Below are positions 1,978 through 58,439 of a DNA stretch of 64,000 bases, piece after piece (position 1 is the stretch's first letter; every line of letters begins with the position of its first letter). The stretch comes from Bdellovibrionales bacterium. GTDB taxonomy: Bacteria; Bdellovibrionota; Bdellovibrionia; Bdellovibrionales; UBA1609. Location: NCBI GenBank assembly GCA_027459485.1, contig DAIDIG010000001.1, positions 257,989-321,988 on the forward strand. Reading direction: 5' to 3'. The translations under genes were made by a program, and so were the position numbers. The notes under the pieces are model-generated. The model was not told where the DNA came from, made no database searches, and saw nothing but the letters and a program-made list of their open reading frames with translations.

Positions 1978-3151
<1,174 letters not shown>

Positions 3152-3169
3152 AAAAATATCAGATGCGGG

Positions 3170-3198
3170 CTTGACGAAAAGCGGCCCGACCCCAAGTT
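3170..3198 (+). promoter_or_regulatory. Sigma32-type heat-shock promoter candidate for dnaK
   Basis: GGGCTTGAC (CTTGAC at 3170-3175), a 14-nt spacer, then CCCCAAGTT (3190-3198). This fits the E. coli sigma32 consensus CTTGAA-N13-15-CCCCATNT well. AGGAG SD at 3211-3215. Confidence 0.5.
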
Positions 3199-3223
3199 CT
3201 TTATATCTGAAGGAGATTTTTAA

Positions 3224-5151
<1,928 letters not shown>

Positions 5152-5155
<4 letters not shown>

Positions 5156-40594: not shown

Positions 40595-41122
40595 CTACCA
40601 GCGATGGTAAGCCGGGTGGCCTTCGCGAACGGCTACAAAAAGACCCCGACATTTCGCCGTCACGACACGCTCCTGTGTGGGGCCGGATGACAACGTGTAC
40701 AGTTCACCTTCAACCCAGGCGCGATCTTCTTTCACGTATTCCACGACGCGCGCGGTGAGGTGGAGCGGCTTGTCCACGGGAGTGGGGCGTAGTAGTTGAA
40801 TTCGATACTCGGCCGTCACGGTGCAGGGAGTTTTATCTATGTTCCATTTGTTTTTTAAGCACCAGGCCGCTGTCCAGTTGCAATGACAATCCAGAAGTGA
40901 ACCGATAATCCCGCCGTTCAACATGCCGGGGAAGGCTTGGTGTTGAGGCTCCGGTTTAAAAGAGCAGATTACCTCGTTCCAATCTTCCTTGCTTGGGAAA
41001 CTTCGAATGCGCAGCCCCTTGGCATTGGCGGGCCCGCAACCGAAGCATATACTTTTCGGCGCGAAATAGTCTTGCAGACTTTTACCCGATTCGAGAACAG
41101 CGGCGATTTCTCGAGCGATCAT
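40595..41122 (-). CDS. PaaI-family hotdog thioesterase with N-terminal CxxC
   Basis: 175 aa. ICFGCGPANAKGL and GMLNGGIIGSLLD are typical of PaaI/DUF4442-type thioesterases. ATGA overlap with the upstream gene. Confidence 0.7.
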   Translation of the reverse strand: MIAREIAAVLESGKSLQDYFAPKSICFGCGPANAKGLRIRSFPSKEDWNEVICSFKPEPQHQAFPGMLNGGIIGSLLDCHCNWTAAWCLKNKWNIDKTPCTVTAEYRIQLLRPTPVDKPLHLTARVVEYVKEDRAWVEGELYTLSSGPTQERVVTAKCRGLFVAVREGHPAYHRW

Positions 41123-43482
41123 GACACCTCTTTGGCCTTCTTACTCGCATACGTCTCGCGTATAAACGAACGCGTGAACTTCAAAAACGCATCCGTTATG
41201 CCAAAGTACAGGGCTGAATTCAAGTATGTCCCTTTTTCCGATTCGCTTTCTTGCGAATGATAAATGCGCACGCACAGATTTTGATCAGGTGCGTTTACGT
41301 AAATCGAGCGAAAAAGGTAAAACATAGAACCGGGCTTGAGAGGTTGATTGGATTGAATAACGCAGCCGAATTCAGAAAGCTCGACGAGGTCGCATTCGCG
41401 TCCAATCTTGGCGTGGATGTGATCGTTTTTCCACGGAACATTATCGAAACGGTAGATGGTAAACGGGTTTCGCATCAAATGTGCGGCGACGTATAATAGC
41501 CGGCGCATTTCAGCCGGTTTGAAAGTAAGCGCCGCCACGGCAGGTTCGTTTAGAAGTTTGGAGACGTCGTCTTGCCGACTTTCGGCGGCTGTCACGATAA
41601 TTTTCGGCCCGTCGGCGGGGCACGAGATATTTGCCTCTTTCAGAGCGTCTCTTAAGCCCGTAAGAAAGGACGGAACGTTATCCGGCAAAAGCGCCTGGTC
41701 GATGACGATGACTTCGAGCGACTGAATCGATTCAAGGTGGCTGCGTGAGTTGCTCAACATTTTGATATCGGGCGCGCGTAAGTTAATACGAATCAAACCG
41801 CTCGTTTCTTCGAGTATAAATTCGGCCGCGACCGTCCGACGAACACCGTCGGCGGATGCGAGGTCCATGTTTTTTCTCACGCGTTTTGAGTGCGGTATCA
41901 GGTACATAATCTCGGTGAGTTGATTTCGCGTGTCGCCGGCAAAAACATCGAGCCAACCTTGCGGCGTTGAAAATAACTTAACCGCGTCGTGGCCGAGAAG
42001 AAGTTGACCCTCTTCGGGAGCGGTTATCGGCATCTGCAGATTGAGATCTAAACCTATTAATAGCCCGACAATATCGGCATAAAAATCTTGCGGCACGGAG
42101 GGTGACGCCTTTTCGATGCGATTCTTCTTGTCGATGTAAGTTTTAAAAAAACTGTAATAGCTGTCATCCCAAACAACGTCGAGATTGCCGATTTCTTTTC
42201 GAGCGTATTCGTATATCGATCGCGCGGTATTTTCATCGGGATCGAGTACAACTAGCGTCTTTCTTTTTTTTTCTTCGTCCGAAAGAAAGATATTTTCGTG
42301 ATTGAACTCGAACAATTTTGGATCGTTGTCGACAAATTGCTTGTGGGCGGTATCGCGCTGCAAATATTGTCGGAGCTCGCGATTGTTGGCTTTCGTCAAA
42401 CCGAAAAACGCGAAATACACGAGGAACTCTCCTTCGCGATCGGGATGCGGTTCAGATCGGATCACTTTGCCGTAAAAGTCGAGAAGCGGCGCCTGCCCTG
42501 GAAAGCGAAAGTAAAAATGACCGCCGGTGCCCTCAGTCAACGGAACAGGATTGGCCATGGCAAAACCTTGATCGCAAAAGCGCTCCAAGTATACCCGCTT
42601 AGCGACCTCCACCTTTTCAAGTGTTTCTTGCACGAATAAAAAGCTAGGGCTTGGCTTTTTCGGGATTGCGAGCACAATTTCGAGCTTTTGCAGAAATATA
42701 AGGCGATCAAGCGGTAAGCACAAGAGATCGTCTATAAAAGGATGATTATACTCCGCCTTTTCGGCTGGGTCGTCTTCATATCTGAGTGCAATGAATTTCG
42801 GTCGATTGTCGGGTGGCCAGCGCTCGGCCTTCTTGAGAAGCGTCGCCGTCTTCGTCACCCATTTTCGCATCACATCGGGCTTTTGGTCGATCGGGCGAAA
42901 GATGATGAGGTCGACCGGATTCTTGGAATCTTCAACCGGTGCCTTTTCCTTTTTTTGAGTCTTACCCAGCCCTTTCGCGACATCGGCCGTATGGTCGGTG
43001 AGTTTCAGAACGTACGTCTTCTCGGTGGAGCGCCCTGAAACTTCAGCGACCCACAGCTCGTTTTTGTCTGACTGAAAGACAAACATATGCGGTTTATCGT
43101 TCGGTGCTTTCATTGCTTCGAGGGCGGATTTAAAAAGCGGACGGCATTTATCGAGAACGATGGTTTCAAGCGATACGCTTTTCGCTACAAGCTCCGTCAC
43201 GGTGCGCCCGAATATTCTCGCGATGTTGACGCGCAGTATTTGACCGCTGGTCGCATCGATTTCGATTTCGGTTGTGCCATCTTGAAGCGCTGGCTCTTGC
43301 GCGAATGTCGCCTCGCCTAAATGTTGAACAACATCTGGCGGCAAACCTTCAAGATATTGAGTATGCTTGGGTTTTGCCACCGGCTTGAGAACGAGGCTTG
43401 AAAAAAAGTGGCGTTCGAACTCCCGAACATTCGGGAATTCTTTTACATCTTCGAGTTCCAGCTCACGCAGATATCGAAGCAT
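41119..43482 (-). CDS. Large signalling-type hypothetical protein (REC-like N-terminus, PilZ-like C-terminus); true start may be ATC at 43530
   Basis: 787 aa from the ATG at 43482. In-frame upstream codons encode (I)GTVVVIEDDLKIRQE with AAGGAG 6 nt before an ATC. C-terminal CDLVELSEFGCVIQS resembles the PilZ D/NxSxxG motif. Confidence 0.65.
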   Translation of the reverse strand: MLRYLRELELEDVKEFPNVREFERHFFSSLVLKPVAKPKHTQYLEGLPPDVVQHLGEATFAQEPALQDGTTEIEIDATSGQILRVNIARIFGRTVTELVAKSVSLETIVLDKCRPLFKSALEAMKAPNDKPHMFVFQSDKNELWVAEVSGRSTEKTYVLKLTDHTADVAKGLGKTQKKEKAPVEDSKNPVDLIIFRPIDQKPDVMRKWVTKTATLLKKAERWPPDNRPKFIALRYEDDPAEKAEYNHPFIDDLLCLPLDRLIFLQKLEIVLAIPKKPSPSFLFVQETLEKVEVAKRVYLERFCDQGFAMANPVPLTEGTGGHFYFRFPGQAPLLDFYGKVIRSEPHPDREGEFLVYFAFFGLTKANNRELRQYLQRDTAHKQFVDNDPKLFEFNHENIFLSDEEKKRKTLVVLDPDENTARSIYEYARKEIGNLDVVWDDSYYSFFKTYIDKKNRIEKASPSVPQDFYADIVGLLIGLDLNLQMPITAPEEGQLLLGHDAVKLFSTPQGWLDVFAGDTRNQLTEIMYLIPHSKRVRKNMDLASADGVRRTVAAEFILEETSGLIRINLRAPDIKMLSNSRSHLESIQSLEVIVIDQALLPDNVPSFLTGLRDALKEANISCPADGPKIIVTAAESRQDDVSKLLNEPAVAALTFKPAEMRRLLYVAAHLMRNPFTIYRFDNVPWKNDHIHAKIGRECDLVELSEFGCVIQSNQPLKPGSMFYLFRSIYVNAPDQNLCVRIYHSQESESEKGTYLNSALYFGITDAFLKFTRSFIRETYASKKAKEVS

Positions 43483-44218: not shown

Positions 44219-45691
44219 TTAACCCATCCACGTCGTGTCTTTTTGCGACGCCCACTTCGTCGTGATTTTCTTTACATCCGACCACAAATCGAGACTATGC
44301 ACTCCCGTGATGTCGCCTTGACCGAATTTAGATGCGGCTACTCCGCCAAACGAAAACGGCTCGCGCGGGACGGGTACTCCGATATTAACCCCGACCATTC
44401 CCGCTTTGCCGTATCGCGCGACATAATCGGCGATGCCGCCATTTTGCGTAAAGACCGACACCGCGTTGCCGTATATCGATGAGTTTTGAATTTTGAGCGC
44501 TTCAGCAAGCGATTCGCAGCGGACGATACTGAGAACGGGCCCGAATAATTCTTCGATCGCCGCCTGACTGCCGGGCTTCACGCGATCGAGAATGGTGGGC
44601 CCAAGCCAATTGCCGTTTTCATAAGGTTTCGGCACGCGCGGTTTTCGACCGTCGAGCACGAGGTGCGCGCCGTCTTTTTCGGCCTGCGCAATCGCCTTTT
44701 GCAATCTCGCCAATGACTCAGTTGAAATGATCGCGCCCATTCTCTCGCCGAGCGATATTTGTTTGGCTTCATCCACAATACCTGCCACGAGTTGATCGAT
44801 TCGTTTTTCTTCAGCCGGCGAATGAGCGATTGCGCACAACACGCTCGCGGCCATGCAGCGTTGACCGGCACAACCGGTGAACGAATCGGCAACACCGCGA
44901 GATGTCAGTTCGTAATCCGCATCGGGCAACAAAAAGATGTGGTTTTTCGCTCCACCCAAGGCCAACACTCTTTTCATGCTGCGACTGCCGCGTTCGTAAA
45001 CGGATTTCGCTACTTGAGTGGAGCCCACAAACCCGACAGCTGAAATAGTCGGATGATCGAGCAAAGCTTCGACCGTTTCGCGGCCACCGTGAGCGATTGA
45101 GAAAACTCCCGCAGGCAATGCGGCTCGAGTGAGTGCATCCGCGAGAAGGCGCGACGTGAGCGGGGTTTTGTCGGATGGCTTCCAGACAAAGCTGTTGCCG
45201 AGTGCAAGCGCGATCGGGATCATCCACATCGGCACCATGGCCGGGAAGTTAAACGGCGTAATGCCCGCGACGACGCCGAGAGGCTCGCGGCGATATTCGC
45301 AATAGACACCGCGCGAGACTTCGATTCGCCCGCCGATGTCGAGGTTCTGAAGCGACAGAGCGAATTCGGTGACTTCGATTCCTTTAAGTAATTCGGCTTC
45401 GGCTTCGGCCGGCGTTTTGCCGCATTCATTCGAAATGCATGCGGCGATTTCTTTGATTTCGTTTAAGAGGATCTCGCGAAAACGAAACAGCACCTGCGAA
45501 CGCTCTTTAATCGGCGTTTCGCGCCAGGCGCGTTGGGCTTGAGCCGCTGCATCGATTACAGCATTTAGATCTTTTGGTGTACTCGAGTAGGCGCGGCCAA
45601 TCACTTCATTGTTGTACGGGCTCACGACTTTGAATTCTTGGCCCGACGGTTTTTGCCACTGGCCATTACAAAAGTTCAGACATTCGATCAT
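44219..45691 (-). CDS. mmsA: CoA-acylating methylmalonate/malonate-semialdehyde dehydrogenase
   Basis: ALDH family with the MMSDH-type catalytic Cys context FTGCAGQRCMA and N-terminal NFCNGQW. Confidence 0.88.
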   Translation of the reverse strand: MIECLNFCNGQWQKPSGQEFKVVSPYNNEVIGRAYSSTPKDLNAVIDAAAQAQRAWRETPIKERSQVLFRFREILLNEIKEIAACISNECGKTPAEAEAELLKGIEVTEFALSLQNLDIGGRIEVSRGVYCEYRREPLGVVAGITPFNFPAMVPMWMIPIALALGNSFVWKPSDKTPLTSRLLADALTRAALPAGVFSIAHGGRETVEALLDHPTISAVGFVGSTQVAKSVYERGSRSMKRVLALGGAKNHIFLLPDADYELTSRGVADSFTGCAGQRCMAASVLCAIAHSPAEEKRIDQLVAGIVDEAKQISLGERMGAIISTESLARLQKAIAQAEKDGAHLVLDGRKPRVPKPYENGNWLGPTILDRVKPGSQAAIEELFGPVLSIVRCESLAEALKIQNSSIYGNAVSVFTQNGGIADYVARYGKAGMVGVNIGVPVPREPFSFGGVAASKFGQGDITGVHSLDLWSDVKKITTKWASQKDTTWMG

Positions 45692-46200
45692 TTGCCGCTC
45701 AATAGTTTAAGTCCCTTACGGATAGCTTCGATTTCAGTAATGCCACTCTTTTCAGTGATTGTCTTGAGTAATTTTATATCGTTTTGTTGAAAGCGAAAAG
45801 TTTTAAGCAGTGTCGGAGATTTATGTTTGTGTCCGATTTCAGTTACCCATTGCATATACTGAGCGGCAGGTATCCCGTAAAACGGCTTTGTCGGATGTCC
45901 CTTGCGAATATCCTGAAGTATCTGTTTGATCGGATCGGGGAGAACAGTGGTGCGAATAAGTCGCGGTCTTTTTAATAGAATCGCGGGCAGTAATTCATAA
46001 ATCCGCGGCTCAATTCGGCCGGCCCAAATGACGTCGGGCAAATCAGGGCGCCCCAAGTAAGGGTACGGTCGGTTAATGAATAAAAACCCATGTTTTTTAA
46101 AAAAACCGATCGTTCGGCGATAGCGCAGATCTTGCATATCTTTGCGTATTGCACGCAGGCGTTTTTTCGCTTCTTTGTAAATCAAATTGGGCTCGTTCAT
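45688..46200 (-). CDS. Hypothetical basic protein translationally coupled to mmsA
   Basis: 170 aa, Lys/Arg-rich, with no signal peptide. ATGA overlap with the mmsA start. No family recognised. Confidence 0.55.
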   Translation of the reverse strand: MNEPNLIYKEAKKRLRAIRKDMQDLRYRRTIGFFKKHGFLFINRPYPYLGRPDLPDVIWAGRIEPRIYELLPAILLKRPRLIRTTVLPDPIKQILQDIRKGHPTKPFYGIPAAQYMQWVTEIGHKHKSPTLLKTFRFQQNDIKLLKTITEKSGITEIEAIRKGLKLLSGK

Positions 46201-46307: not shown

Positions 46308-47519
46308 GTGACGACGAAGATTAAAATTATTTTGGCCGGCGGCGGTCACGCCCATTTGCTTCTTTTAAAAAACTGGCCGGCGGCTGAGCGCCCGAATGTC
46401 GAAATCACGCTCATTTCCGAGTTCCCGACAGCCGTGTACTCGGGGATGGTGCCCGGTTACATCGCCGGCACATACACCCTAGACGAAATTCAGGTTGACC
46501 TTGCAAAGTTGGCGGCTGCGTGCAGAGTCAACTTTCTTCGCGCAGATATAACGGGGCTCGATCTGACGGCGCGTGAAGTGATCACGAACTCGGCGGGATC
46601 AATCAAGCGCGTTCCGTTCGACGTTTTGTCTCTCGACGTCGGCAGTCGGGCGGGTGTTTCACGCGTGCGTGAGAAGTCGGGCGGCGCCGATCCTGGTCGC
46701 GAATTTTCAATCAAGCCACTGCAAACGTTTTTAGAGAATTGGCGGCGGGTGAGTGCGGATCCCGCCATTCGCGAAATTGATGTGATCGGCGGTGGTGCGG
46801 CCGGTCTGGAGTTGGCTCTTGCCATGGCGAGCGCATTGCGACTGGTACGCGCGCCCTCGAAGATCCGTGTCTGCTTGCACGAGCGGGCTTCACGAATTCT
46901 GCCCCAGATGCCACGGCGGGCTTCGCGCATCGCTTTGAAACGCGCGCAGGATCTAGGCGTTGAAGTGCAGTTGAACTCGAGCGGGCAAATCGGTGCCGAC
47001 AAAAAAATGGGCGAAGCTGTTGATTCCGGCGCTCGGGCGCGGTTTGTCGCGGCGGGGCCGACGGCTCCTGAATGGTTTCGCGAAACGGGATTGGATCTGA
47101 GCGCGGGCGGTTTTATTTGTATCGATGAGTTTTTGCGCGCCAAAGGTCACGCGAATATTTTCGCGGTCGGGGACTGTGCCGAATTTTTGCGGCAAACCAG
47201 CGGAGGCCAACCTCAACCCATCCCGCGTTCGGGGGTGTACGCCGTCCGCCAATCTCCCGTTCTGTTAAACAATTTGCGTGCGGCTTGTGAGGCTTGTGCC
47301 GAGCCACACTCAACCAAGGTTTCGGCGTCTTTGCAAAAATATCATCCGCAAAAACGCGCGCTATATTTGCTTTCGCTCGGAGATTTAGACGGCAACCACA
47401 AAACAATGTTCACTTGGGGCCTGTTCGCGTTCGCGGCGAAGTGGCTTTGGTATGTGAAACGATGGATTGATCGGCGGTACATGCGGGGGCTTCAAAACTC
47501 GTACCGCCAAGCTAAATAA
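46308..47519 (+). CDS. FAD-dependent pyridine nucleotide-disulfide oxidoreductase (NDH-2 / SelD-N-terminal-like)
   Basis: GTG start. KIILAGGGHAHLLLL and IDVIGGGAAGLELA dinucleotide folds, plus FAVGDCA. Confidence 0.8.
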   Translation: MTTKIKIILAGGGHAHLLLLKNWPAAERPNVEITLISEFPTAVYSGMVPGYIAGTYTLDEIQVDLAKLAAACRVNFLRADITGLDLTAREVITNSAGSIKRVPFDVLSLDVGSRAGVSRVREKSGGADPGREFSIKPLQTFLENWRRVSADPAIREIDVIGGGAAGLELALAMASALRLVRAPSKIRVCLHERASRILPQMPRRASRIALKRAQDLGVEVQLNSSGQIGADKKMGEAVDSGARARFVAAGPTAPEWFRETGLDLSAGGFICIDEFLRAKGHANIFAVGDCAEFLRQTSGGQPQPIPRSGVYAVRQSPVLLNNLRAACEACAEPHSTKVSASLQKYHPQKRALYLLSLGDLDGNHKTMFTWGLFAFAAKWLWYVKRWIDRRYMRGLQNSYRQAK

Positions 47520-50195
47520 CTATTGCAACACGCGGAAGAACACGCCGAGTTCCGGGTGTTCGTGATTGATGTACGCTTGAACCATATCGCCTTTGCGGAT
47601 TTCGATCGTGTGAAATTCTCCAGGTACACCCGGCGTGCCTGGTTCGCCATTCGGCCCTGGAGGGCCTGGCGGGATGCCATTGTCTTGATAGCGACCGTTC
47701 AAAATGGCATCGCGAAGTTTCGCCGTGATTTGCTCATCGATGGTATTGACGACTTTGCTCCCGTCTTGTGCGCCGGCTAGCTTCGAGCCGATGTATCCAG
47801 CCATATCGGCCTGATTTTCGAAAGTGATGCCGATATCCCGTTCAGCATAAACATCAATCAGGTTTTGCAACTTCAAGTCGATAAGGGGACCAATGGACTT
47901 ACCGGCCATACGGGGCATCACGATAATGTTCTGGATACGACGAAGAAAAGCCTCATTGTAATCGCCGTTTTTTATAAGGTATTCGTCGATCTGAGCTCGA
48001 CTCGATTGCGGTGTCAAGACGTCGGTCCCCGCATTGTCTGTCATGATGACGTCTATATTTTTCATACTGGCGACTCGCCCCATGCTATCTGTGAGTCGAC
48101 CGCCGTTGTCGTCAAGCCATGTCAGCAGAATGTTATCTACAATACTTTTGTGCATCCGCGACGGCTCATCGATATGAAGCTCGGCATATGGCTTTTGGCG
48201 AATTGCATTTTGAATTGCCGAACCTTCCGCCGCGCCTTGGTAACCTTGACCTGCCGAAGTGAAGTTACTTGCTTGAAAAGCTTGTTGATAATCGCCGCCG
48301 TTAATCGTGATTCGCTCGCCGCCCTTAAATGCGTTCGAGTAAGATATGGCGAGTTGGGTTTTACCACCGCCCGGTGCGCCCAAAATAAGCGTGACCGAAC
48401 GAGGAGCGTCGGGGCCGCGAATTCGAGCTGCCGAGTTATCAATCGCGCGAATTAAATTGTAATAGGATTCAGCGCCGGCATACTCCTTCTGAAAGTCCGC
48501 CCAATTCTCTTCAAACGTCCTCGGCTTCACATCCTTTAAAATTTCGACGTATGAAAATTCAGGGTGATCGCGATGAATTTGAATTGCCAGGTCCTCGATT
48601 GTGAGCCTTTTCAATTTTGCCTGAACGGCATTGCCTTCGTTGACCTTATTTTGCAGGTCCGTGATTCGCGTTTGAAGCGCCGAAATTTCTTGCCGGGCCG
48701 CTTGAACTTCGATGGGTTTTCGAGCTTGATGTATTTTGGCTTCAGCAACGTTTAGTTCGCCTTTCGCTTTGGTGAGTTCCGATTTGGCTGCGTCAAGAGC
48801 CTTCATCTTCTGCGCCGCCTCGTGAAGTTCAATCGATCGAGCTTCGGCTTTGTCAATTTTGGCTTGAAGCTCAGCGAGCTCACCAGGAATTTCTTCGACC
48901 CGGTTTCGCGCAAAACGACCGGGTAACTGTTTGAGTTCTTGTAACTTGCTTTCGAGATTCGCCTTTTCGATTCGCAATTCTTGCGCGAGCGAGATTCGCT
49001 CGCCAAGACTCAAGATTTTATCTTCGCGGTTGATGGCTTCGGTGAGTAGGTAGGCCGAGCAGCCTGGCTGAGCCATATCCGGGTAATACCGACGGCAGCG
49101 TTCATCCGACCACTTCACTACGTCGTCGTCTATTTCGACGTTATTTGCTTTTTCAAGTTGTGCGACCTCGTGCTCGAGGGCTCCCTGTATTTCACCGGGC
49201 GTCAGCTGGCGAACATATACTAAGCGCCAACCTCGTTCTTTCGCGAATGGGTAGAGCGATTTGATTGATTCAGGGTCGCCGATATTGCCGGTTTTCGTAT
49301 CAACCCCGCCCTGCGCTTCACCGATAAACAGAAGATCGGGGTCTTGAAGAGTTTGGCGTGCAATCGCCTGCATCTCATGAATGTCTGGCGATTTCACTGT
49401 CGCGACATTGCCAGCCTCAGCCTTTTGCCAATTGCGAAGGGATGTAAATAGCACAATAAATTTTGGCTTATCACCTTTGCCGTAATCAAGACCGGCCAGC
49501 TTCTTTTCGTTATTGGCCGCCATGACCTTTTTTAGTTCGCGCTCGAGTTGTTCGGGGGTATGGATTTTCGTAGTGTCGACTTCAAGGATACGCGTATCGC
49601 TCGGAAATTTTTTTAAGCGACCTTGGATAATCTCTCTCTGCACTTGATTGATAACCGAGGTTTTACCACCCATCGGGGGGCCGTATGTGATCACTCCATC
49701 AGTGGTATAGCGGCTATCGAGCGCGACGAGCATATTTTCGACTTCAACATTTCGCCCGATGGTCGGCGGCAGACCCCCGTTTATGGCTTCGACGTATTTG
49801 TCTTTGATCAAACCGCCCGTTAGTGTCGAGATTACATCCTGTAGACGCGATAAAGGCTTTAGGCCGTTGCCGCCGTTTCCGTTACCGCCGCTTGGTGTTT
49901 GAGTCGAGTTGGGTTTCGCTTGATTGTCTTCATCCGTCTTAGCAGTACGCAGGCCGCCTTCATTCGATTCGGACATTTTCAAGTTGGGGTCAGCGACGTC
50001 ATCCGGCTTGTTTCTAAGCCAACGCCATGCCCGCATCATGAAGCTTTCGGTACCGCCCGATTCTTGAACCATATTTGCGGTACTGCTAACAATGTTGCCG
50101 TCACCTGCCAATGGGATATCAGCGGCTTGGGCAAAGGCTCGAGCGCCACCGACGGCGAGAAATGCGGCAATGACGTAAATTGAAAGTTTGTTCAT
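47520..50195 (-). CDS. Diverged two-NBD ClpB/Hsp100-like AAA+ protein with Sec-type signal peptide (891 aa)
   Basis: ORF 47520..50243 trimmed to MNKLSIYVIAAFLAVGGARAFA|QA, with a GAGGA SD. NBD1 TIGRNVEVENML...GPPMGGKT (49659-49682). A coiled-coil middle region (about 48606-49013). NBD2 GAPGGGKT (48357-48380), LHIDEP, LLTWLDDNGGRLTDSMGRVASMKNIDVIMTDN, co-linear with E. coli ClpB by eye. Confidence 0.8.
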   Translation of the reverse strand: MNKLSIYVIAAFLAVGGARAFAQAADIPLAGDGNIVSSTANMVQESGGTESFMMRAWRWLRNKPDDVADPNLKMSESNEGGLRTAKTDEDNQAKPNSTQTPSGGNGNGGNGLKPLSRLQDVISTLTGGLIKDKYVEAINGGLPPTIGRNVEVENMLVALDSRYTTDGVITYGPPMGGKTSVINQVQREIIQGRLKKFPSDTRILEVDTTKIHTPEQLERELKKVMAANNEKKLAGLDYGKGDKPKFIVLFTSLRNWQKAEAGNVATVKSPDIHEMQAIARQTLQDPDLLFIGEAQGGVDTKTGNIGDPESIKSLYPFAKERGWRLVYVRQLTPGEIQGALEHEVAQLEKANNVEIDDDVVKWSDERCRRYYPDMAQPGCSAYLLTEAINREDKILSLGERISLAQELRIEKANLESKLQELKQLPGRFARNRVEEIPGELAELQAKIDKAEARSIELHEAAQKMKALDAAKSELTKAKGELNVAEAKIHQARKPIEVQAARQEISALQTRITDLQNKVNEGNAVQAKLKRLTIEDLAIQIHRDHPEFSYVEILKDVKPRTFEENWADFQKEYAGAESYYNLIRAIDNSAARIRGPDAPRSVTLILGAPGGGKTQLAISYSNAFKGGERITINGGDYQQAFQASNFTSAGQGYQGAAEGSAIQNAIRQKPYAELHIDEPSRMHKSIVDNILLTWLDDNGGRLTDSMGRVASMKNIDVIMTDNAGTDVLTPQSSRAQIDEYLIKNGDYNEAFLRRIQNIIVMPRMAGKSIGPLIDLKLQNLIDVYAERDIGITFENQADMAGYIGSKLAGAQDGSKVVNTIDEQITAKLRDAILNGRYQDNGIPPGPPGPNGEPGTPGVPGEFHTIEIRKGDMVQAYINHEHPELGVFFRVLQ
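47613..47666 (-). repeat. Collagen-like G-X-Y x6 coding stretch inside the ClpB-like C-terminal domain
   Basis: Encodes GPP-GPN-GEP-GTP-GVP-GEF. Read directly from the reverse complement of 47613-47666. Confidence 0.9.
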
Positions 50196-50303
50196 GACAT
50201 AGTCCTCGCAAATTATTCCGAACCACAACTGTGCAATCCCCATTCCAAGTCTGACGTAACAAGATCGAACTCACGCAATCGACCTTGCCGGGAATTGTCA
50301 TCC

Positions 50304-50338
50304 AGGTGTCTATATTTTTGACACCTAAAGCGGGTGTC
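50304..50338. promoter_or_regulatory. Operator-like GGTGTC motif cluster in the divergent intergenic region
   Basis: AGGTGTC (50304-50310) and its inverted copy GACACCT (50320-50326) are separated by 9 nt of A/T. A third GGTGTC lies at 50333-50338. TTGACA at 50318-50323 overlaps the inverted repeat. Confidence 0.3.
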
Positions 50339-50390
50339 AGCCTCTAGAATCCAGTCGAGAGTGGAACGTAAATTGCCTTCTATATAAGTC

Positions 50391-52283
50391 ATGAAAGCTC
50401 TGATTTCATTGTTTCTAGCACTCTCCATCATCTTGGGCCCCTTGCAGGAGATCAACGCGGCGGCTGAGCCCCGAGCAGAGGCGGCGGCGAACGGGCTGAC
50501 CGTAGCGGATGTGCAATTAATCAACTCGCGGCGATCGACGCTCGAGCAGGTTTTTCTCGTTTCGCTACTCAATCGAACCCGCCTTTTCGAAATATTGAAC
50601 AAGGTGCTTTTTCAAGCTCAAAACGATTGTCTGCAAAATCCTTTCAGCTTTTACGTCACTGTTAAACAATCGGGCAATTGCCCGGCGATTGTGAACGAGA
50701 TGCTTTACAACATCAAAGTTAATTACCCCGATATCAGAAAACTTTACGCCGTTTACAATTTGATTCGAAATTCCAAAATTCTGCTCGACGCCCTGACTCA
50801 ACGAGAGGGCTACCGGTTCAGCGACGGCCCAATTCGGACGCCGTTAGGCGAAGCCCAGACGGCTCTTGATTATTCTCGAGATTTGACCCAGGGGCCGATA
50901 GACGTATCGTTGAGCGATCTCAGCTTAAAATCGCCGATACCGACGCATTTTCAGGGGCTGCTCAATGGATTTGACATTCAAAATATTCGACCGACGCTCG
51001 AAGACTATCAACTGGCTGCCTCGAATATGGCGCCCATGCTCATCGCGGAGCCGTGCGATTCGTGCAAAGGTGGCCTCGAGCCGACAAACTACGACTTATC
51101 GGTGACAGGGCTCTATCAGAAGGAGTGCAGCGACTATGTCGCCGCCAATCTCGGCAAAATGCTCATCGCCCCCGACTATGCGCGATGGCCCCGCCAATCC
51201 GGCATGATCTGTAAAGACTTTCGATTGGCATTTAACCGAAACACTCAGAAATTTTCTTTTGTGTTGTCGGGGTTACCTCGTGATTCGAGTGCGTGGAACC
51301 ACCAGTGGCTCAATTTGTATCGGGACGTCGTAAATAAGGGGCTAATGGCTCATCGTGATGATATGGTCGCATACGTCAAGATACGGTTATTTGATCTCAT
51401 ATCTCAAGCCCCTTATGCTGCTTTGGTGGGGACGCCCACTCCCTCACTTTTTGCCCTGAAAAATGCGATTCGAAGCATTGCTCATCAGGCGGCCAAAGAT
51501 GAGAGCGACTTCGAAAAACTATTCTTAAAATTACGAGTAGCACCAAATAGTCAAAAAGATTACCAAGCCAAACGAAAGCAATACCTAGCCCTGATGGACC
51601 GCTCACAAGTGGTGAAAAATCTGCTGCAATATCCTTCGCCCGATATGCAGGCTGAAGCGGACAATGCAGTATTCGGAAAAATAGCGCAGGACCTGACCTT
51701 CGAGCGGCAGATGAACCAAACTGTACATAATGTCGTCGTCAGCGTCGCTTGGCTGGCTCTGCCTGTCGTGAGCGGCTATTTGTGCACGGCGCTGGCGAAA
51801 ATACCCGCTACGATTTGCTCAAGCGTGATTATGGCTGCGACGGTGGGCCTCTCAGCACCTTATGTTTGGCAGAGCTTCTCGAATTTCAATCAAATTTTTG
51901 GAGAAATGTTTGCCGGTCAACAGATTGGCAATAATGAGGCGGATGGGTTGGCCGCGTCGCCGAAATTAGCGCGAATTGATTCGTCGGTGGCAAATCCAGC
52001 AGTTCTTCGCAACTTGGTGCTGCGAGATCTAGACGAGGTCGATTCGGCCTACGATGCTGAGATTTTTCAGATCGTGTCAGCCGGTGCCGGTGCCGCGATC
52101 GGGGTCAAATTTGAAGTTCCGCGAGTCAACGCTCTCTACAAAGTGCTGTCTGAAGGCCTCGAATCAAAAGCGGCGATCGAGTCACCCGAGGCTGCGAAAG
52201 ACGCCGCGAAAATTATGAAGGCCGCACGATTTCTCGCTCGTTTGAACCCGTTCGGAACGCCGAAGGGTACGCCAGCACCTTAA
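50391..52283 (+). CDS. Large exported hypothetical protein (630 aa) with internal hydrophobic hairpin
   Basis: Signal peptide MKALISLFLALSIILGPLQEINA. Hydrophobic pair VVVSVAWLALPVVSGYLCTALA / ICSSVIMAATVGLSAPYVW at residues about 446-492 (51726-51866). No SD, and a TATATAAG lies just upstream of the ATG. Confidence 0.65.
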   Translation: MKALISLFLALSIILGPLQEINAAAEPRAEAAANGLTVADVQLINSRRSTLEQVFLVSLLNRTRLFEILNKVLFQAQNDCLQNPFSFYVTVKQSGNCPAIVNEMLYNIKVNYPDIRKLYAVYNLIRNSKILLDALTQREGYRFSDGPIRTPLGEAQTALDYSRDLTQGPIDVSLSDLSLKSPIPTHFQGLLNGFDIQNIRPTLEDYQLAASNMAPMLIAEPCDSCKGGLEPTNYDLSVTGLYQKECSDYVAANLGKMLIAPDYARWPRQSGMICKDFRLAFNRNTQKFSFVLSGLPRDSSAWNHQWLNLYRDVVNKGLMAHRDDMVAYVKIRLFDLISQAPYAALVGTPTPSLFALKNAIRSIAHQAAKDESDFEKLFLKLRVAPNSQKDYQAKRKQYLALMDRSQVVKNLLQYPSPDMQAEADNAVFGKIAQDLTFERQMNQTVHNVVVSVAWLALPVVSGYLCTALAKIPATICSSVIMAATVGLSAPYVWQSFSNFNQIFGEMFAGQQIGNNEADGLAASPKLARIDSSVANPAVLRNLVLRDLDEVDSAYDAEIFQIVSAGAGAAIGVKFEVPRVNALYKVLSEGLESKAAIESPEAAKDAAKIMKAARFLARLNPFGTPKGTPAP

Positions 52284-52448: not shown

Positions 52449-54197
52449 TCAAAATCGATGGGGGGCGGCAAGAGGGAGTTTTTGAATCTGCGAATAAGTC
52501 GCCCGCAGTTGGGAGTAGGCTTCGCCGAGACTGACCGCCAGACAATTACCGCCGATGCCGGCCGCGAACTTTTCGCATGAAAAGTGATCTTTGATTTGGC
52601 CGCCGAAGATGCTCATGACAATTTGCTTCGTCGCCGGGTCGTAGTGAATCCCGCTATTGGCCGGAACACAGCGCTTCGGAGGCAGGTTCGCCGAACCATT
52701 CTTGTTAGTTCCCCCGCCGTAAATGGTATTGGCCGATAAAAACTGATACCAAAGCAAATACTCGGCAAGCTCTTCGGTCGCCAATTGGCGGTTGTACATC
52801 GAAATATGTTTTGTAAAGGCATCGACGTTGCAACTGAAATTGAGCGCGTCGAGAGCATTGTAAGTGGTGTTGAGAAGTTCCTTTTCTTTGCTGTTTGGTA
52901 GTAGCGCTCCGCTATCGACCGGTACCAGACGCGTTGTGAAATCAAATAAGTGACCCGGCATGTGTTTAGCCAACTCGTACTTCCAACCCCTCTCCGGACC
53001 ATACAAATGATTGTAAAGTCGTTGAAGCCCCATATGGTGCCCCGCCACATTGATGACGCCGCCGACGCTGGCCATGCCCATCAATTTCATGAGAGTGACA
53101 AACTGCCATTTTGGGTTTGAGAGACCGAGAAACCGTAGCAAAGTTTGAATTCGAGCGGCGCGCTGATATTTTTCGGTATTCTCGCCAATTTTCAATTTGA
53201 AATTCCGCTCTTTCATGCGCTCTTCAAATTTGGCTCGGGCCTTGGCGTCGTTACTCATTGCCTCCTGCAGAAGTTGAGAGTCCGTTACGTTTTGCGCACC
53301 CTTATAGCCGATCGACTCGAGTTCGGTCTCGAGTCCGCTGATTTGCAGCCTCATCTGCATTATTTCTGTAAGTGCTTGGGCGCGCGCCGGGTCCTTCTTT
53401 GCGATGATATTGATACGTTTCAACATTTTGGCGGTGTCGAGCACGTCTGCGTTGGCATCTTCCGCCGCATCGGGGAGTGCGCCCCGCAACGAACGAAACA
53501 GACCGCCCCACGATTCGGTCATGCCGTTCCAGGTATCGGCAATGTAGGGCCACGCGCGGGGATTGACGATAGTTAGAATGAACGCAGCCGCGCCCGCCCA
53601 TTTGAGGCCGACTAAAAACTGCTGGGCCGGTTCTGATGTAATTATTAGGTTTCGAAAAGCGGCATTATTGTCGTATTGATCATTGATTGTTTTAAAAATG
53701 GTGAATACGGCAGGTGCCGATAGTGGGTCAGTGATGTAGATACCGGCCAGAGTCACAATCTTATGATTGAAATCCGAATTCGTGCCCGTCAAAAGATTTT
53801 GAATAACAGCCGTTAAGGCGGTCGCGAGCGGTCCGTCAGTTTGAGCCTCGGCATCATCGACTTGTTGCTCGATCGATTTTGAGCCACTTTGATTTTCGGC
53901 TTTTGTCGCATTGACGACGTTGGTGTCAAAGTCACTTGTCAGAAGAGCATTGTTCAGTTCGCTTGCAAATCGTTGCTGTTTCGGCAGTGACTCTTGCTGG
54001 TAAACTCGAAAGTAATGGTTGAGTAGAATTCTGAACTCTTCATATTCACCAGCCGGCACGTTATTTTGAATGAGGGCCAAGGCAGCTGGAGCTAAAACGG
54101 AGGGTTCCGACGGCTGTGGCGGTTGTACGGCCATCAGATACGAAGATTGGGTGACTACCAAAACTATCGCGACAATCATCCGAAGACTTCGCTTCAT
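52449..54197 (-). CDS. Large exported hypothetical protein (582 aa)
   Basis: ORF 52449..54260 trimmed to MKRSLRMIVAIVLVVTQSSYLMA, with a GGAGG SD 6 nt upstream. ATGA overlap with the upstream 1138 aa gene. Internal hydrophobic helices FLVGLKWAGAAAFILTIV and FVTLMKLMGMASVGGVINVAG. Confidence 0.65.
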   Translation of the reverse strand: MKRSLRMIVAIVLVVTQSSYLMAVQPPQPSEPSVLAPAALALIQNNVPAGEYEEFRILLNHYFRVYQQESLPKQQRFASELNNALLTSDFDTNVVNATKAENQSGSKSIEQQVDDAEAQTDGPLATALTAVIQNLLTGTNSDFNHKIVTLAGIYITDPLSAPAVFTIFKTINDQYDNNAAFRNLIITSEPAQQFLVGLKWAGAAAFILTIVNPRAWPYIADTWNGMTESWGGLFRSLRGALPDAAEDANADVLDTAKMLKRINIIAKKDPARAQALTEIMQMRLQISGLETELESIGYKGAQNVTDSQLLQEAMSNDAKARAKFEERMKERNFKLKIGENTEKYQRAARIQTLLRFLGLSNPKWQFVTLMKLMGMASVGGVINVAGHHMGLQRLYNHLYGPERGWKYELAKHMPGHLFDFTTRLVPVDSGALLPNSKEKELLNTTYNALDALNFSCNVDAFTKHISMYNRQLATEELAEYLLWYQFLSANTIYGGGTNKNGSANLPPKRCVPANSGIHYDPATKQIVMSIFGGQIKDHFSCEKFAAGIGGNCLAVSLGEAYSQLRATYSQIQKLPLAAPHRF

Positions 54198-57100
54198 TGC
54201 GAACCTCCAGCCATGGGGTTCGCCATTCCGATTTTGGCTGATTGGGCGTGAAGATCCCACAAGTCTTGCACAGTTGCATTCGGCCCGATCACCGATTGAG
54301 CATAAATCTTGAGGGCGCTATTGCCGCCCATCTGTTCAGCACGACCGCCTATCACCGACACGATTTGATTGTAAGCAGCTCTTGCGTCGTTGATGCGGTT
54401 GAAATTGCCTGAAGCTTCAATCGCGCTCAGACGCTCGTTGAGATTCGCAAGCGTCAAAGTTGGATTGTAACCCAAATCGAGAGCGCGAATGGCCCCTTCA
54501 AGATCGATTCGATCGTTTCTGCCGAGATTGATTATGGTTTCTTCGGCTGCTTGAACGGCGGCTGGGTTACCGGACGCGATGGCGGCCTCGAGTTGGCGCG
54601 CTCTGAGGCCGGGGCGTCGCATAGTCCAGTCCACAGCTCGGCGAAACCAATTCGCGTTCACTTCGCTGAGACTCGCATTGTACGCTCCGATGCTGCCGAG
54701 AGCGCCGCCCATAAATACTATCATCACGCCGTCTGAAATCATGCTCCATTTGCTGTTGTCATTGGCGTATTGAATGGCGCCCGTGCCGTTGCGATAGCCG
54801 TCATCAGTCATGAAAATTCCGCTGCGCGTGTTCACGCCCTGTGAAAAATAAAGCTCGTTCACGGCATCCATGTGAATGTAATCGTTTACAAGTATGCGGC
54901 TTGATTGAATGCCGACATCTAGAAGCGTTTGTGCATATATCGCCATTGGTAAGAACATTCGTGTCATTACGGGCGCCATTCGCATCTCAATTTGAGACAT
55001 AAATGCCGGCAGAGCCCGCATCACTGAAAATTTGGTGGCGACGGTGCGAAGTGGCGCTGCCAAGATGTTTTGGGCCATCCAGTAAGCGAAGTACCAGCTG
55101 AAAACCGTTTTGATGGTCGCCATGTAATTGTCGTATACACTCCAGCCGATACCGGTCGTTCGTGAGATGTTGGCCTGCTCAGCTTCGACGAAGGCTTTTA
55201 TTGCCGGTTGGCTCTCGAGTAGATTAGGCAATCCATCGGCGTCGTTCAAAAAGCCAATCAAGCCGTTCATGTTTTCGGCCACCAAATACGTTCTGGCTTC
55301 TTGAGCCAAATTGTAATCGATGAAGCGAAGCCCCCAATCAATTCGCTGGGCGGCGATCGACGGGCTTTTCGCGTTTGCGATTTTTTCAAATAAGTATGGC
55401 GCCGAGTGATCGAAGCGGTTGCTCGAATATCGCAAAGTCAAAAACCGAACATCCGGCAAGATCAACTGCTTGACGTACGCGATTTTGTACTGCTGAATCT
55501 CGCTCTTCAGAGCGGCGCCGGAGAGCTTCGTTTGCAAGACATCCACGGCATCTTGCAATGATTTAAATGGCGCCGCTTGTGGGTTGAGCCCCATCATATC
55601 GGCTGTGTCATGCATGAGAACGCATTGGGCGTTCGGGCTGAGTGCGTTCTTACCGAACGAAATGCCAAACGCGCTTAGCACAATTTTGCCGATGGCTTTC
55701 GAGTCGGCTCTCACGCGACTCGGGGGCTTGCAGTCGTATCCGCCGTTTCGAGCATCGGTTGCGAGATGGCTGCTAACGACAGACCAGGCGGAGCGCATGC
55801 CCTCATATCTCGATTGCTGTAGAACAACTCGAAATCTCGCTATGTTCAGTGCACTCAGTGAGTTTTGCAGGTACGGAGCCCGCGTAAAGGCCATGATGTG
55901 AGGATTAAACGGGATCTCGCTATTGGGCGTTTTTGAACTATAAATAAATTCGGCTTTGAGCGCGAGGGCAAAGCTCGAAGAATAAAAGTTGCCATCCGGT
56001 TGGCTCATTTGACTGGTGGTGGCGTGGCTTCTCAATTTTGCGAAGCGAGCGACAATGCCATTGAACCAATCGAGTACCGGCTTCTGGGCGAGCGCTTGAT
56101 CAACCGTTTCGCTGGCCAACTGATAAAGGCTGTCGCTGATCGAATTGATAACTTGATCGGTAGGCGGAGAAGAATTTTCTCTCGCAACAGCGTAAAATTG
56201 ACCGAAAAGGATGCGCGCATCCAAATATTTTTTGTAAATAAGCATCTGCCGTAGTGCCGACCTCGCTGAGACTTCATCGAGTGATTCGAGACGGCCGACA
56301 TAAAATTTGACGAACTCAATAAGTTGAAGCCCCAAAGACTTTTCTATGAGTGACAGGTGCTCATTCAGTTCGCGTTGCATTTTTTTAAACTTTTCAGCAG
56401 GCATATAAGGGTTGTTACTTTGAGCGTAGGTCGTGTTGCAGCTCGAAATGAGGCTTTGCAAAGTCGAAGCAAATAATGGGGATTGAGTCATCGTCATCAG
56501 CGGGCCATAGTATGGCGCCGCCTTTTCAGCGGCATCGGTGGCTTGGGTTAACCATGATGCGAGATTTTGAGAATCCTCCGCCGTTAGCGGGGGAGTGACT
56601 TTTGAGAATTTGCCGACGTTGTAGTAATAGGGATTGATAATCAGCGCCGTTAAATCGGGGACGGTGAGTTGTGCCCCGCCTGCCAAGTGGCTATTCAAAA
56701 ATGCTGTCATGGCTTGAGGTAGTACTTTGTCAGCGGTGACCGTACCGTCGGCGATCGCCAAACGAAACAACGTTTCACTGCCTTCGGCCGCTCGAGCCCG
56801 CTGCCAAGATTCGACTTCGCTGACCGGCATTCCCAAACAGGCGCGAGCCGATGGTGGCAAAGAGAGCGCAATTCGCGCGGGCGGCACACCTCGAACTTGT
56901 TCTTGCAAGAAATATTGCTCCACCATCTGTTCGGCAATCACACAACGGGTGGCTTCAAAATTGTCTTTGCCGCTGATCTGCAGTTGATCGGCAGAGGCCG
57001 CGGCATCTGAAATAATTGAATAGATCTTTTCGGGCGTGAGGCTCACAACGGCATCCTGAGGATTCAGGCTGATGACTTCGGCCTGGCCAATGGGTTGATC

Positions 57101-57746: not shown

Positions 57747-58439
57747 TTACAGTGATACAGATGCGGGGTTCACGCCGTACTGGACAGCTGCGGGTAGAAC
57801 CGAGTCAGCGCACGTCGCGGCGGTGCCGTAGCAAATTTGAGAATTGCCATTAGCGTCCGTGTGTTTGCAAAGCTTAACTGCGATGGTGGCGGCTTCGTCT
57901 TCTGATACGCCGACAGCATTTGCAATTGCTTGGATGCGCGCTTTACCTACAGCTAATTTTATGTCAGCAGAAGCGTCCGAAAATTTCGTGTTGCCGAGAA
58001 CCTGAGTCTCTGCGCCAAGAATGCGAATCACTTTTTGGGCAGTGGCATCGTCTGTGTCTCCGCTTTTTGTTAAGCAAGAGTCGTGAATCAAACCGAGCGC
58101 ATTTGCCAAATTAAATGTAGCGCGATCAGCACCGACAAATCGAGAAGCCGGGGAGTTTGCCATACAGGCACCCGCGACTTCAGAAGTTTGCTGGTCAACT
58201 CGCGACGCCGGCAACAGCGAATTTGCCGTCGCTTGTTCGTTTGCGTTCAAAAGGCTACCTGCCCCACTGAGAGCACCCGCCGCGGCAGCAGCATCTGATC
58301 CAACAGTCCCTGCAGTTCGGCCGGCTTCAACTGCGCCTCGGATCGCATTGACTGCGGCGTCCGGCGCTGCTTCTTGCCCAAATGCTACGGCCGAGATCAT
58401 GCTCATCGCGATGGCCGCGAAAATTACGTTTGCTTTCAT
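57747..58439 (-). CDS. Secreted Ala-rich hypothetical protein (230 aa, 5 Cys in the mature part)
   Basis: Signal peptide MKANVIFAAIAMSMISAVAFGQEA. Ala/Gly/Ser-rich N-terminal half. Followed by its own terminator. Confidence 0.65.
   Translation of the reverse strand: MKANVIFAAIAMSMISAVAFGQEAAPDAAVNAIRGAVEAGRTAGTVGSDAAAAAGALSGAGSLLNANEQATANSLLPASRVDQQTSEVAGACMANSPASRFVGADRATFNLANALGLIHDSCLTKSGDTDDATAQKVIRILGAETQVLGNTKFSDASADIKLAVGKARIQAIANAVGVSEDEAATIAVKLCKHTDANGNSQICYGTAATCADSVLPAAVQYGVNPASVSL

Follow-up and report, generated by a model that had tools for sequence, protein, structure and literature searches.

AAA+ unfoldases are textbook machines of the cytoplasm, since ATP is held to be absent from the bacterial periplasm and from outside the cell. 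The only extracytoplasmic AAA+ proteins that turned up in the literature were the Torsins and HSP101 of the Plasmodium PTEX translocon, both of which are eukaryotic; HSP101 operates in the parasitophorous vacuole. HSP101 is an exported ClpB homolog that is docked on a membrane pore via the beta-sheet of its C-terminal domain (PMC7355975), and the Torsins are called, in a review, the sole AAA+ proteins resident in the network formed by the endoplasmic reticulum and the nuclear envelope (PMC7175109). Literature searches yielded no account of a bacterial Hsp100 that is exported or periplasmic, of a Bdellovibrio ClpB with a signal peptide, or of the five-gene module presented here. The gene in question lies at 47520-50195, on the minus strand, of a 64,000-nt window (the whole stretch of DNA that was analysed, from contig DAIDIG010000001.1 of the Bdellovibrionales bacterium assembly GCA_027459485.1). 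Its product is a two-ring Hsp100 of ClpB type and, together with eight relatives, it defines a new family of single origin: signal-peptide Hsp100s with a pseudo-ATPase first nucleotide-binding domain (NBD1). Judged from its sequence, the protein would be an Hsp100 of new topology, in which the first ring is a pseudo-ATPase and to which a set of predicted exported partners is dedicated.

The initial annotation had taken the product for a homolog of ClpB/Hsp100, and this is confirmed by hidden Markov models (HMMs), by sequence matches in the PDB, and by superposition of an AlphaFold model on both rings of ClpB, ClpC, and Hsp104. The best PDB sequence match is ClpB of T. thermophilus (1qvr, E=8.6e-28), over residues 318-835 and with a separate weak stretch at residues 137-206 that corresponds to the NBD1 P-loop; E. 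coli ClpB, ClpC, and Hsp104 follow, Plasmodium HSP101 being weaker (about 2e-12). The AlphaFold model, built on a 55-sequence alignment, has a mean predicted local distance difference test (pLDDT) of 83.4 and a predicted template modelling score of 0.72; confidence is high from residue 120 onward and low in residues 1-115. In Foldseek searches, about 790 columns including both rings align to ClpC, ClpB, Hsp104, and PTEX HSP101, with E ranging from 3.5e-36 to 5e-28 (4.6e-28 for the HSP101 structure 6e10). Since this alignment takes in both rings, NBD1 retains the AAA+ fold. The protein nevertheless belongs to no curated Hsp100 family. It matches the NCBIfam ClpB model (E=2.4e-37), but with 128.8 bits against a cut-off of 1232.1 (TIGR03346), and the scores for the ClpB equivalog NF008118 (99.7 against 1417), for the second-best NCBIfam model, ClpV1/TssH TIGR03345 (111 bits against 884.95), and for ClpA (103.7 against 993) are likewise below cut-off. 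The sole passing Pfam domain is AAA_2 (residues 600-732, E=4e-13); the Pfam scan of the protein gave no match to Clp_N (PF02861), even at E<=1, nor to AAA_lid_9 and ClpB_D2-small.

The closest described relatives are ClpB and Hsp104 (TIGR03346; PDB 1qvr, 4d2q), with which the protein shares the two-ring class-I layout and the long M-domain coiled coil inserted in NBD1. In its second nucleotide-binding domain (NBD2), it also shares the Walker A and B motifs, sensor-1, the arginine finger, and a GY-x-G pore loop. Like them, it has no ClpP-docking loop: the G-F-bearing insertion of ClpC sequences P0023 and P0036 aligns to a gap here, as it does in ClpB. Several features set it apart from ClpB. 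First, the Clp_N domain is swapped for a predicted signal peptide and a disordered linker. Second, the pore-loop tyrosine, the Walker B D-E pair, sensor-1, and the second arginine finger are missing from NBD1, and the sensor-2 arginine of NBD2 is a lysine. Third, the protein has an extra C-terminal beta element, and its gene is linked to orphan genes for predicted exported proteins, not to heat-shock genes. Dedication of an Hsp100 to a secretion-related machine would be a trait in common with ClpV/TssH. However, ClpV is cytoplasmic, with a sheath-binding N-domain, two active rings, and a type VI secretion system (T6SS) neighbourhood, and no T6SS family was found among the scanned neighbour genes.

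Relatives were sought by a word-indexed search covering 5.8 billion clusters and by an exhaustive profile search covering 1.84 billion representative proteins. The former returned one close relative, P0002 (51 % identity over the full length), from a metagenome-assembled genome (MAG) titled 'Bdellovibrionales bacterium'. The latter gave about 13,000 Hsp100 matches, 12 of them at E<=1e-30, headed by P0002, P0041 (555 bits), P0042, P0043, and P0044; a scan of the N-termini of the best 150 of these approximately 13,000 matches added P0051, P0081, and P0182, for a total of eight relatives. All come from MAGs or metagenomes, one being labelled Bdellovibrionales, and their names ('ClpB', 'ClpA') are automatic only. 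The full-length family profile was swamped in the word-indexed database by canonical ClpB/ClpV through shared NBD2 words, and a profile restricted to NBD1 and the M-domain returned one member, P0182. A genome scan with single-protein patterns recovered only the P0002 locus, and two metagenome pattern scans gave pattern matches among which no relative was confirmed. Identities within the family are 22-54 %, with P0081 at 22 % to the window protein, and all nine members (including the latter) have in common the NBD1 losses, the invariant NBD2 residues, a motif in the M-domain, and a C-terminal extension. They form a single clade in neighbour-joining trees, a crude method in which long-branch effects are possible, with bootstrap values of 42/50 on NBD2 plus the D2-small domain, 50/50 on NBD1, and 50/50 on the whole core. 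What emerges is a vertically inherited family with predicted export signals, in which one ATPase ring has decayed and the catalytic residues of the other are strictly kept.

The features of the first ring and of the M-domain are as follows.

48996-49838, minus strand: NBD1 (residues 120-400), AAA+ fold retained and catalytic residues degenerate; superposes on D1 of ClpB/ClpC.
49659-49682, minus strand: NBD1 Walker A, GPPMGGKT (residues 172-179), Lys178 kept.
49548-49574, minus strand: site of NBD1 pore loop 1, TTKIHTPEQ (residues 208-216), the A-K-Y-R-G of ClpB missing.
49440-49460, minus strand: NBD1 Walker B position, FIVLFTS (residues 246-252), T251-S252 replacing D-E.
49224-49331, minus strand: NBD1 sensor-1 strand LFIGEAQ, a 20-residue insertion (296-315), and AKERGWR, placed by alignment and model.
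48606-48995, minus strand: M-domain coiled coil of ClpB length (residues 401-530), with helices at 402-422, 427-490, and 494-528.
48879-48914, minus strand: family motif [FY]A..R...IP.E in the M-domain (residues 428-439), A429 and P437 being family-invariant.

An apparently dead first ring had been proposed from the Walker B position and the pore loop, and the formal alignment found neither intact in NBD1: the Walker B D-E, the pore-loop-1 tyrosine, sensor-1, and the double arginine finger are absent in all nine members, which points to a ring that would no longer hydrolyse ATP. At pore loop 1, a 4-residue gap relative to all reference Hsp100s is found in every family member. No member carries D-E at the site aligned to the hhhhDE of ClpB/ClpV/ClpC, where the model places a beta strand (residues 246-250). 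P0002 has D-D at this site and a cleaner P-loop, but this is not evidence of an active ring, because it is one of nine different degenerate states. Some of the losses go beyond those first reported: the sensor-1 threonine of NBD1 is an alanine, and AKERGWR stands for the ALERRFQ of the arginine fingers, so that R321 remains and the second arginine is a glycine. To these is added the change of the NBD2 sensor-2 arginine to lysine (K814). The corresponding reference residues in E. coli ClpB are E279 (Walker B) and R331/R332 (arginine fingers) in NBD1, and E678 (Walker B) and R756 (arginine finger) in NBD2 (PMC5319980). The P-loop lysine K178 is retained and is nearly invariant over 55 Hsp100 sequences; the ring would therefore be hydrolysis-dead, but not necessarily nucleotide-free. 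D2 of NSF and D1 of Pex1/Pex6 bind nucleotide without hydrolysis and hold the ring together. The logic of one non-hydrolysing, nucleotide-binding ring for assembly and another ring as motor could be shared, although NSF and Pex1/Pex6 belong to other AAA+ clades and resemble the present protein in logic only. The M region aligns with ClpB without a gap, whereas ClpC and ClpV sequences are shorter there. Only two cysteines, C367 and C379, are present in the ATPase, and both are invariant in the close trio of family members.

The second ring and the C-terminal region comprise the following features.

47916-48473, minus strand: NBD2 (residues 575-760), Pfam AAA_2 at E=4e-13.
48357-48380, minus strand: NBD2 Walker A, GAPGGGKT (residues 606-613), with K612.
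48234-48251, minus strand: NBD2 pore loop, GQGYQG, with Y652, by motif alignment.
48165-48182, minus strand: NBD2 Walker B, D676-E677, by motif alignment.
48033-48047, minus strand: NBD2 sensor-1, N721, by motif alignment.
47934-47948, minus strand: NBD2 arginine finger, R753, by motif alignment.
47691-47915, minus strand: D2-small domain (residues 761-835).
47754-47762, minus strand: NBD2 sensor-2 position, G-S-K (residues 812-814), Lys814 standing for the Arg of G-A-R.
47616-47684, minus strand: collagen-like G-X-Y run (DNGIPPGPPGPNGEPGTPGVPGE; residues 838-860), of low pLDDT.
47523-47615, minus strand: C-terminal beta extension (...GDMVQAYI...GVFFRVLQ; residues 861-891).

That NBD2 keeps its D-E and a GYQG pore-loop-like motif was also correctly noted at the outset, and the alignment finds D676-E677 and G-Y652-Q-G. 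The motif positions quoted then are all right: GPPMGGKT at residues 172-179, GAPGGGKT at 606-613, GYQG at 651-654, the D-E of LHIDEP at 676-677, and FIVLFTS at residues 246-252, exactly window positions 49440-49460. K612, D676, E677, N721, and R753 are invariant in 9/9 family members as well as in the 55 Hsp100s, and the pore-loop residue is aromatic in seven of the nine members. Beyond the D2-small domain, the C-terminal extension forms strands at residues 861-863, 871-876, and 885-890 with pLDDT around 90; it is kept in all nine members and is not found in ClpB, ClpV, or ClpC. Between the two lies the collagen-like run (GPPGPNGEPGTPGVPGE) of about six G-X-Y triplets, an insertion absent from P0002 and all other family members in the alignment, and thus unique to the window protein. 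Bacterial collagen-like runs usually occur in surface or secreted proteins, so this one may be a weak hint that points the same way as the signal peptide.

The N-terminus takes the place of the ClpB N-domain. The gene, its start, and the N-terminal features are listed below.

47520-50195, minus strand: signal-peptide-bearing ClpB-like gene, 891 aa, with its stop codon at 47520-47522.
50203-50207, minus strand: Shine-Dalgarno (SD) sequence GAGGA, 7 nt ahead of the ATG start codon (50195).
50130-50195, minus strand: predicted Sec-type signal peptide (residues 1-22), made of MNK, LSIYVIAAFLAVGGA, and RAFA, with QA after the predicted cleavage site.
50010-50051, minus strand: short amphipathic basic/aromatic helix (TESFMMRAWRWLRN; residues 49-62), a predicted helix with pLDDT around 72.
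49842-50009, minus strand: disordered G/N/S/D/K/P-rich linker replacing the ClpB N-domain (residues 63-118), with pLDDT below 50 at 67-112.

The open frame spans 47520-50243 on the minus strand and counts 907 aa from its first ATG in the list of open reading frames (ORFs). The start at 50195 is nonetheless supported, as the initial annotation had it (891 aa), because GAGGA lies 7 nt upstream, because the independent NCBI gene call P0001 has an identical 891-aa product, and because the ortholog P0002 opens with the same MNK, with GAGG at the same 7-nt spacing. The in-frame ATG at 50243 was rejected as a start: it has no SD sequence, and both the gene call and the ortholog use 50195.

Signal peptides were judged by heuristic scans, from anatomy and from conservation across relatives. 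Residues 4-22 are the sole hydrophobic segment that a hydrophobicity scan detects in the protein. The N-terminus has the anatomy of a predicted Sec signal peptide of the signal peptidase I type, with a +1 n-region (K3), a 15-residue h-region, and small residues at -3 and -1 (A-F-A before Q), and with neither a cysteine at +1 nor a twin arginine. Since there is no twin arginine, a Sec-exported protein would cross the membrane unfolded. The same n/h/c design is kept in 7/8 relatives at 22-54 % identity, in the absence of sequence conservation, and it recurs in independent NCBI, ENA, JGI, and Logan assemblies. With no Clp_N match, this argues for the proposal that a signal peptide stands in place of the N-domain, and we infer that the protein would be exported and cleaved after Ala22. 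After the signal peptide, segments with W/F and R/K comparable to the amphipathic helix are found in P0002, P0042, P0044, P0051, and P0182, and P0043 too contains one. In the linker, a 9-nt tandem repeat (49863-49881) encodes GNGNGG.

Two further observations concern N-termini of this kind. The start called for P0042 (L005 4522-4669) precedes the signal-like segment by 49 codons and has an 8-nt overlap with the gene before it. Two readings fit: translation really begins at Met50, or this member has its hydrophobic segment in an internal position, as a signal anchor. Another kind of signal-peptide-bearing Hsp100-like protein, P0050 (L013 8001-11057) and P0046, is about 1020 aa long and consists of three tandem AAA_2 plus ClpB_D2-small modules, each with an intact Walker A. 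These proteins have N-termini such as MRLLFLLLILIFCQFSMNA followed by QN, and the JGI name is 'ClpA'; the context of P0050 (shikimate pathway genes and small ORFs) is unrelated to the ClpB-like module. Because they too bear signal peptides, Hsp100-type ATPases may have acquired export signals on more than one occasion.

The ATPase gene has four partner genes beside it, as follows.

50391-52283, plus strand: 630-aa partner ('630 family'), divergent, with a signal peptide-like start and hydrophobic segments at about 447-489.
52449-54197, minus strand: 582-aa partner, with a signal peptide-like start, an ATGA overlap with the stop of the upstream gene, and GGAGG 6 nt upstream.
54194-57610, minus strand: 1138-aa partner, with a signal peptide-like start.
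57747-58439, minus strand: 230-aa partner, Cys-rich, with a signal peptide-like start.

All of them have signal-like N-termini in heuristic scans. Searched as single sequences, the four partners gave no Pfam, NCBIfam, or PADLOC match, and profiles of the 630, 1138, and 582 families found no relative among PDB sequences; a single-sequence structure model of the 630-aa partner has a pLDDT of 35.6. A defence-system reading was rejected, as PADLOC gave weak AAA/coiled-coil noise only and nothing for the partners. Six loci with flanking DNA were compared, with ortholog identities of 20-50 % (BLAST), and the following module genes were found beside the ATPase gene.

L001 (P0002): all four.
L007 (P0081): 212, 1130, 506, and 653.
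L005 (P0042): 1138-fragment, 633, and 615.
L003 (P0182): 896-fragment, 461, and 514.
L014 (P0208, of the same cluster as P0041): 428-fragment and 619.
L010 (P0043): the 630-family gene only.

Orthologs of the 630 family adjoin the ClpB-like gene in all six of these loci (L001, L014, L005, L007, L003, and L010). Those of the 582-aa partner are found in L001, L014, and L005, with positional equivalents in L007 and L003, and those of the 1138-aa partner in L001, L007, L005 (a fragment), and L003. The 230-aa partner has a 45 % identical ortholog in L001 and a 212-aa positional equivalent with a signal peptide in L007. Five cysteines are invariant in the 630 family (C80, C97, C246, C274, and C476) and four in the 1138 family (C258, C391, C627, and C663). 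Together with C367 and C379 of the ATPase, they would suit proteins that fold in an oxidising compartment. The module junctions are operonic: in the window, the genes for the 1138- and 582-aa partners are joined by an ATGA stop/start overlap, such overlaps also occur in L003 and L007, and in L005 the calls of the 630-family and ATPase genes overlap by 8 nt. Beyond the module, L007 repeats the window order, with Pyr_redox_2 on the opposite strand, Aldedh, then proteins of about 785 and about 170 aa. Given an identity of only 22 % between P0081 and the window protein, this matching order indicates vertical descent with fast divergence.

The export of an ATP-dependent unfoldase to an ATP-free compartment was called a paradox in the initial annotation. 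The paradox is real, and it is made sharper by how strictly the catalytic residues of NBD2 are conserved. In the same proteins, the NBD1 equivalents have decayed to nine different states while the NBD2 residues are invariant, which argues that NBD2 is under selection for hydrolysis; if the motor ring is so selected, its site of action must contain ATP. Among the ways out that had been suggested, a signal anchor would leave the paradox standing, because the positive charge on the N-side puts the bulk of the protein outside either way. ATP independence has the least support, and delivery to, or action in, another cell seems the most attractive.

Tentatively, and with slightly less than even confidence, we therefore favour a Sec-exported, single-motor class-I Hsp100 that would act with four exported partners where ATP exists, plausibly in prey. 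In this proposal, a ClpB-derived class-I Hsp100 carrying a Sec signal would work outside the cytoplasm of its producer, cleavage after Ala22 probably following export. The mature protein would assemble into the usual hexamer, in which NBD1 would serve as a nucleotide-binding, non-hydrolysing assembly ring. NBD2 would be the sole motor, with Tyr652 gripping the polypeptide and ATP driving its threading. The ATPase and the 630-, 582-, 1138-, and 230-aa exported or membrane proteins would constitute one extracytoplasmic module, specific to a Bdellovibrionales-like clade. The most plausible source of ATP would be the prey cell, be it a leaky prey cytoplasm or bdelloplast, or the prey cytoplasm itself. 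The module might then be a functional analogue of the Plasmodium PTEX translocon, where the signal-peptide-bearing HSP101 powers movement across a membrane outside the parasite. Hexamer formation, use of ATP, interaction with the partners, and the link to predation are steps that we infer.

PTEX is counted as a precedent because HSP101 docks by a C-terminal beta-sheet and the present family has a conserved extra C-terminal beta element. With HSP101 (ClpB2; PDB 6e10/6e11), the protein has in common a ClpB-type Hsp100 and co-exported partners of no known homology, export being predicted in the present case. By contrast, HSP101 has kept its N-domain, and both of its rings are active and carry tyrosine pore loops. 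As for the Torsins, a relation to Clp/Hsp100, a signal sequence, a lumenal compartment, and an incomplete catalytic machinery would be the shared traits, in part according to the same review (PMC7175109). However, Torsins consist of a single AAA+ module that borrows its arginine finger from LAP1/LULL1, whereas the protein described here has two modules and an arginine finger of its own in NBD2.

Several points weigh against the reading that we favour. In general, the periplasm of Gram-negative bacteria is held to be free of ATP. Export and cleavage are predicted from sequence features, and P0043 shows no signal peptide, with a start-less remnant upstream only. P0051 and P0044 have no partner gene on their short contigs. 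Family clusters are tiny (1-3 members) and come from MAGs or metagenomes only, and a predatory lifestyle is assumed from a single MAG label, 'Bdellovibrionales'. Pfam, NCBIfam, and PDB profile searches found no similarity of the partners to EXP2, PTEX150, PTEX88, or TRX2; as the partners resemble no PTEX component, the analogy is one of logic, not of homology. Finally, the sensor-2 arginine, kept in 6/9 members, is lost in the three closest, including the window protein (K, A, and D), and the NBD2 pore-loop tyrosine is a leucine in P0041 and P0044, so the motor may be weakened in these members.

The alternative that survives best, although it seems unlikely, is that the N-terminal segment remains uncleaved and tethers the AAA+ body to the cytoplasmic face of the inner membrane, where it would draw on cytoplasmic ATP to unfold or extract its exported neighbours or other cargo, or to feed them into an export route, and would thereby be the ATPase of a new secretion or assembly system. 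The ATP paradox would then vanish, and a tight linkage to exported or membrane proteins is what would be expected of a dedicated export ATPase. The h-regions of P0081 and P0182, at 24-25 residues, could span a membrane, but the 15-residue h-region of the window protein is too short for a stable span, and there is no second hydrophobic segment to return the chain. Charge also argues against this topology: a C-terminus inside requires positive charge on the C-side, and all members have a positively charged n-region (+1 to +4), with small-x-small sites and acidic residues after the hydrophobic segment. The same search did return anchored, cytoplasm-oriented Hsp100-like proteins, P0045 being one. 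This ClpB-like protein (730 aa, Logan) has an N-terminal hydrophobic segment followed by R-R-L-R, a charge arrangement opposite to that of the family that predicts a cytoplasmic body. It also has an intact Walker B in NBD1 (VILFIDEL) and provides a useful contrast to the family.

Somewhat less probable still is an exported scaffold or holdase, periplasmic or secreted, that has kept the Hsp100 shape and works without ATP. This would fit the absence of ATP from the periplasm, as well as the degenerate NBD1 and the losses of the sensor-2 arginine in the three closest members and of the pore-loop tyrosine in two. It fits poorly with NBD2, the best conserved domain (32 % mean pairwise identity, against 15-26 % elsewhere), in which the Walker A lysine, the D-E pair, the sensor-1 asparagine, and the arginine finger are invariant in 9/9 members at about 22 % identity. 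The same classes of residue have decayed in NBD1, a difference that selection for hydrolysis would explain and that is hard to account for otherwise.

Two isoforms, with an internal start yielding a cytoplasmic, active ATPase that lacks the signal peptide, are very improbable. In the three closest members, Met53 does not vary, and it precedes all ClpB-like sequence. However, the six more distant members do not share the internal methionines, and no SD-like sequence was found within 20 nt upstream of Met42, 53, 54, and 74 of the window protein or of the internal methionines of L001, whereas the annotated starts do carry SDs. The first internal in-frame methionine is residue 42, as was said initially, and no downstream start with a ribosome-binding site or with conservation was found that would remove the hydrophobic N-terminus. 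Last, an ordinary cytoplasmic paralog of ClpB, ClpV, or ClpA/C, with an odd N-terminus due to an annotation or assembly artefact, can be ruled out for practical purposes in spite of the 'ClpB' and 'ClpA' names that pipelines give to the relatives, given HMM scores of about one tenth of the family cut-offs, the lack of Clp_N, of a ClpP-docking loop, and of T6SS neighbours, and an N-terminal design that recurs in independent assemblies.

To return to the exported single-motor Hsp100, a bolder version of it, drawn from the PTEX analogy and in our view doubtful, would have a secreted hexamer sit on membrane-inserting partners and use prey ATP to move or unfold proteins at the prey cytoplasmic membrane. 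It would be the first bacterial extracytoplasmic AAA+ motor. To our knowledge, the route of proteins and nutrients through the prey inner membrane in predatory bacteria is still unresolved, and the module provides a concrete five-gene candidate for such passage. If the protein works outside the cell, either ATP is available there (e.g. from prey) or an AAA+ ring is driven otherwise, and either answer would be new. As a natural single-motor variant of ClpB, it would also be useful for the mechanistic study of ring cooperation.

The locus belongs to the core chromosome, as the window encodes DnaJ, DnaK, RNase Y, RF3, ScpA/B, and UDP-glucose dehydrogenase; DnaK and DnaJ, both cytoplasmic, are encoded at 2018-5155. 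The GC content of the ClpB-like gene is that of the surrounding DNA, and a scan of 47300-50500 for promoters and terminators gave nothing exceeding shuffle expectation. A neighbourhood of Pyr_redox_2, Aldedh, PNPOx, a PilZ protein, RNase Y, and UDP-glucose dehydrogenase is common to the window, L007, and L010. In L010 (5332-7727), the 1138, 582, and 230 genes are replaced by those for a signal-peptide-bearing TGase_elicitor protein (533 aa) and for one of 265 aa that matches ORF11_beta faintly. L010 is thus a lineage without the 1138, 582, and 230 genes, and its ATPase, P0043, is also the one without a signal peptide.

Several other neighbours can be described. A 787-aa protein (41119-43482, minus strand) with one weak PilZ match is followed by a 175-aa ORF (40595-41122, minus strand), with a 4-nt start/stop overlap. 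The pair has counterparts of 784 and 168 aa and of 824 and 167 aa at the equivalent position in L007 and L010, respectively, and accompanies the module as a conserved neighbour. Between Aldedh and Pyr_redox_2, a 170-aa ORF (45688-46200, minus strand) has no Pfam or NCBIfam match, and a 100-aa ORF without a Pfam match is found just past Aldedh in L007. Proteins with cyclic-nucleotide-binding domains (13796-15454 and 20422-21642) flank RNase Y (18752-20347), and a cyclic-nucleotide-binding protein is found beside RNase Y in L007 too. Finally, the Pyr_redox_2 gene (46308-47519, plus strand) is convergent with the ClpB-like gene; their ends abut at 47517-47522 (TAA then CTA) with zero spacer, which leaves no room for a terminator, and the pair is convergent in L007 as well.

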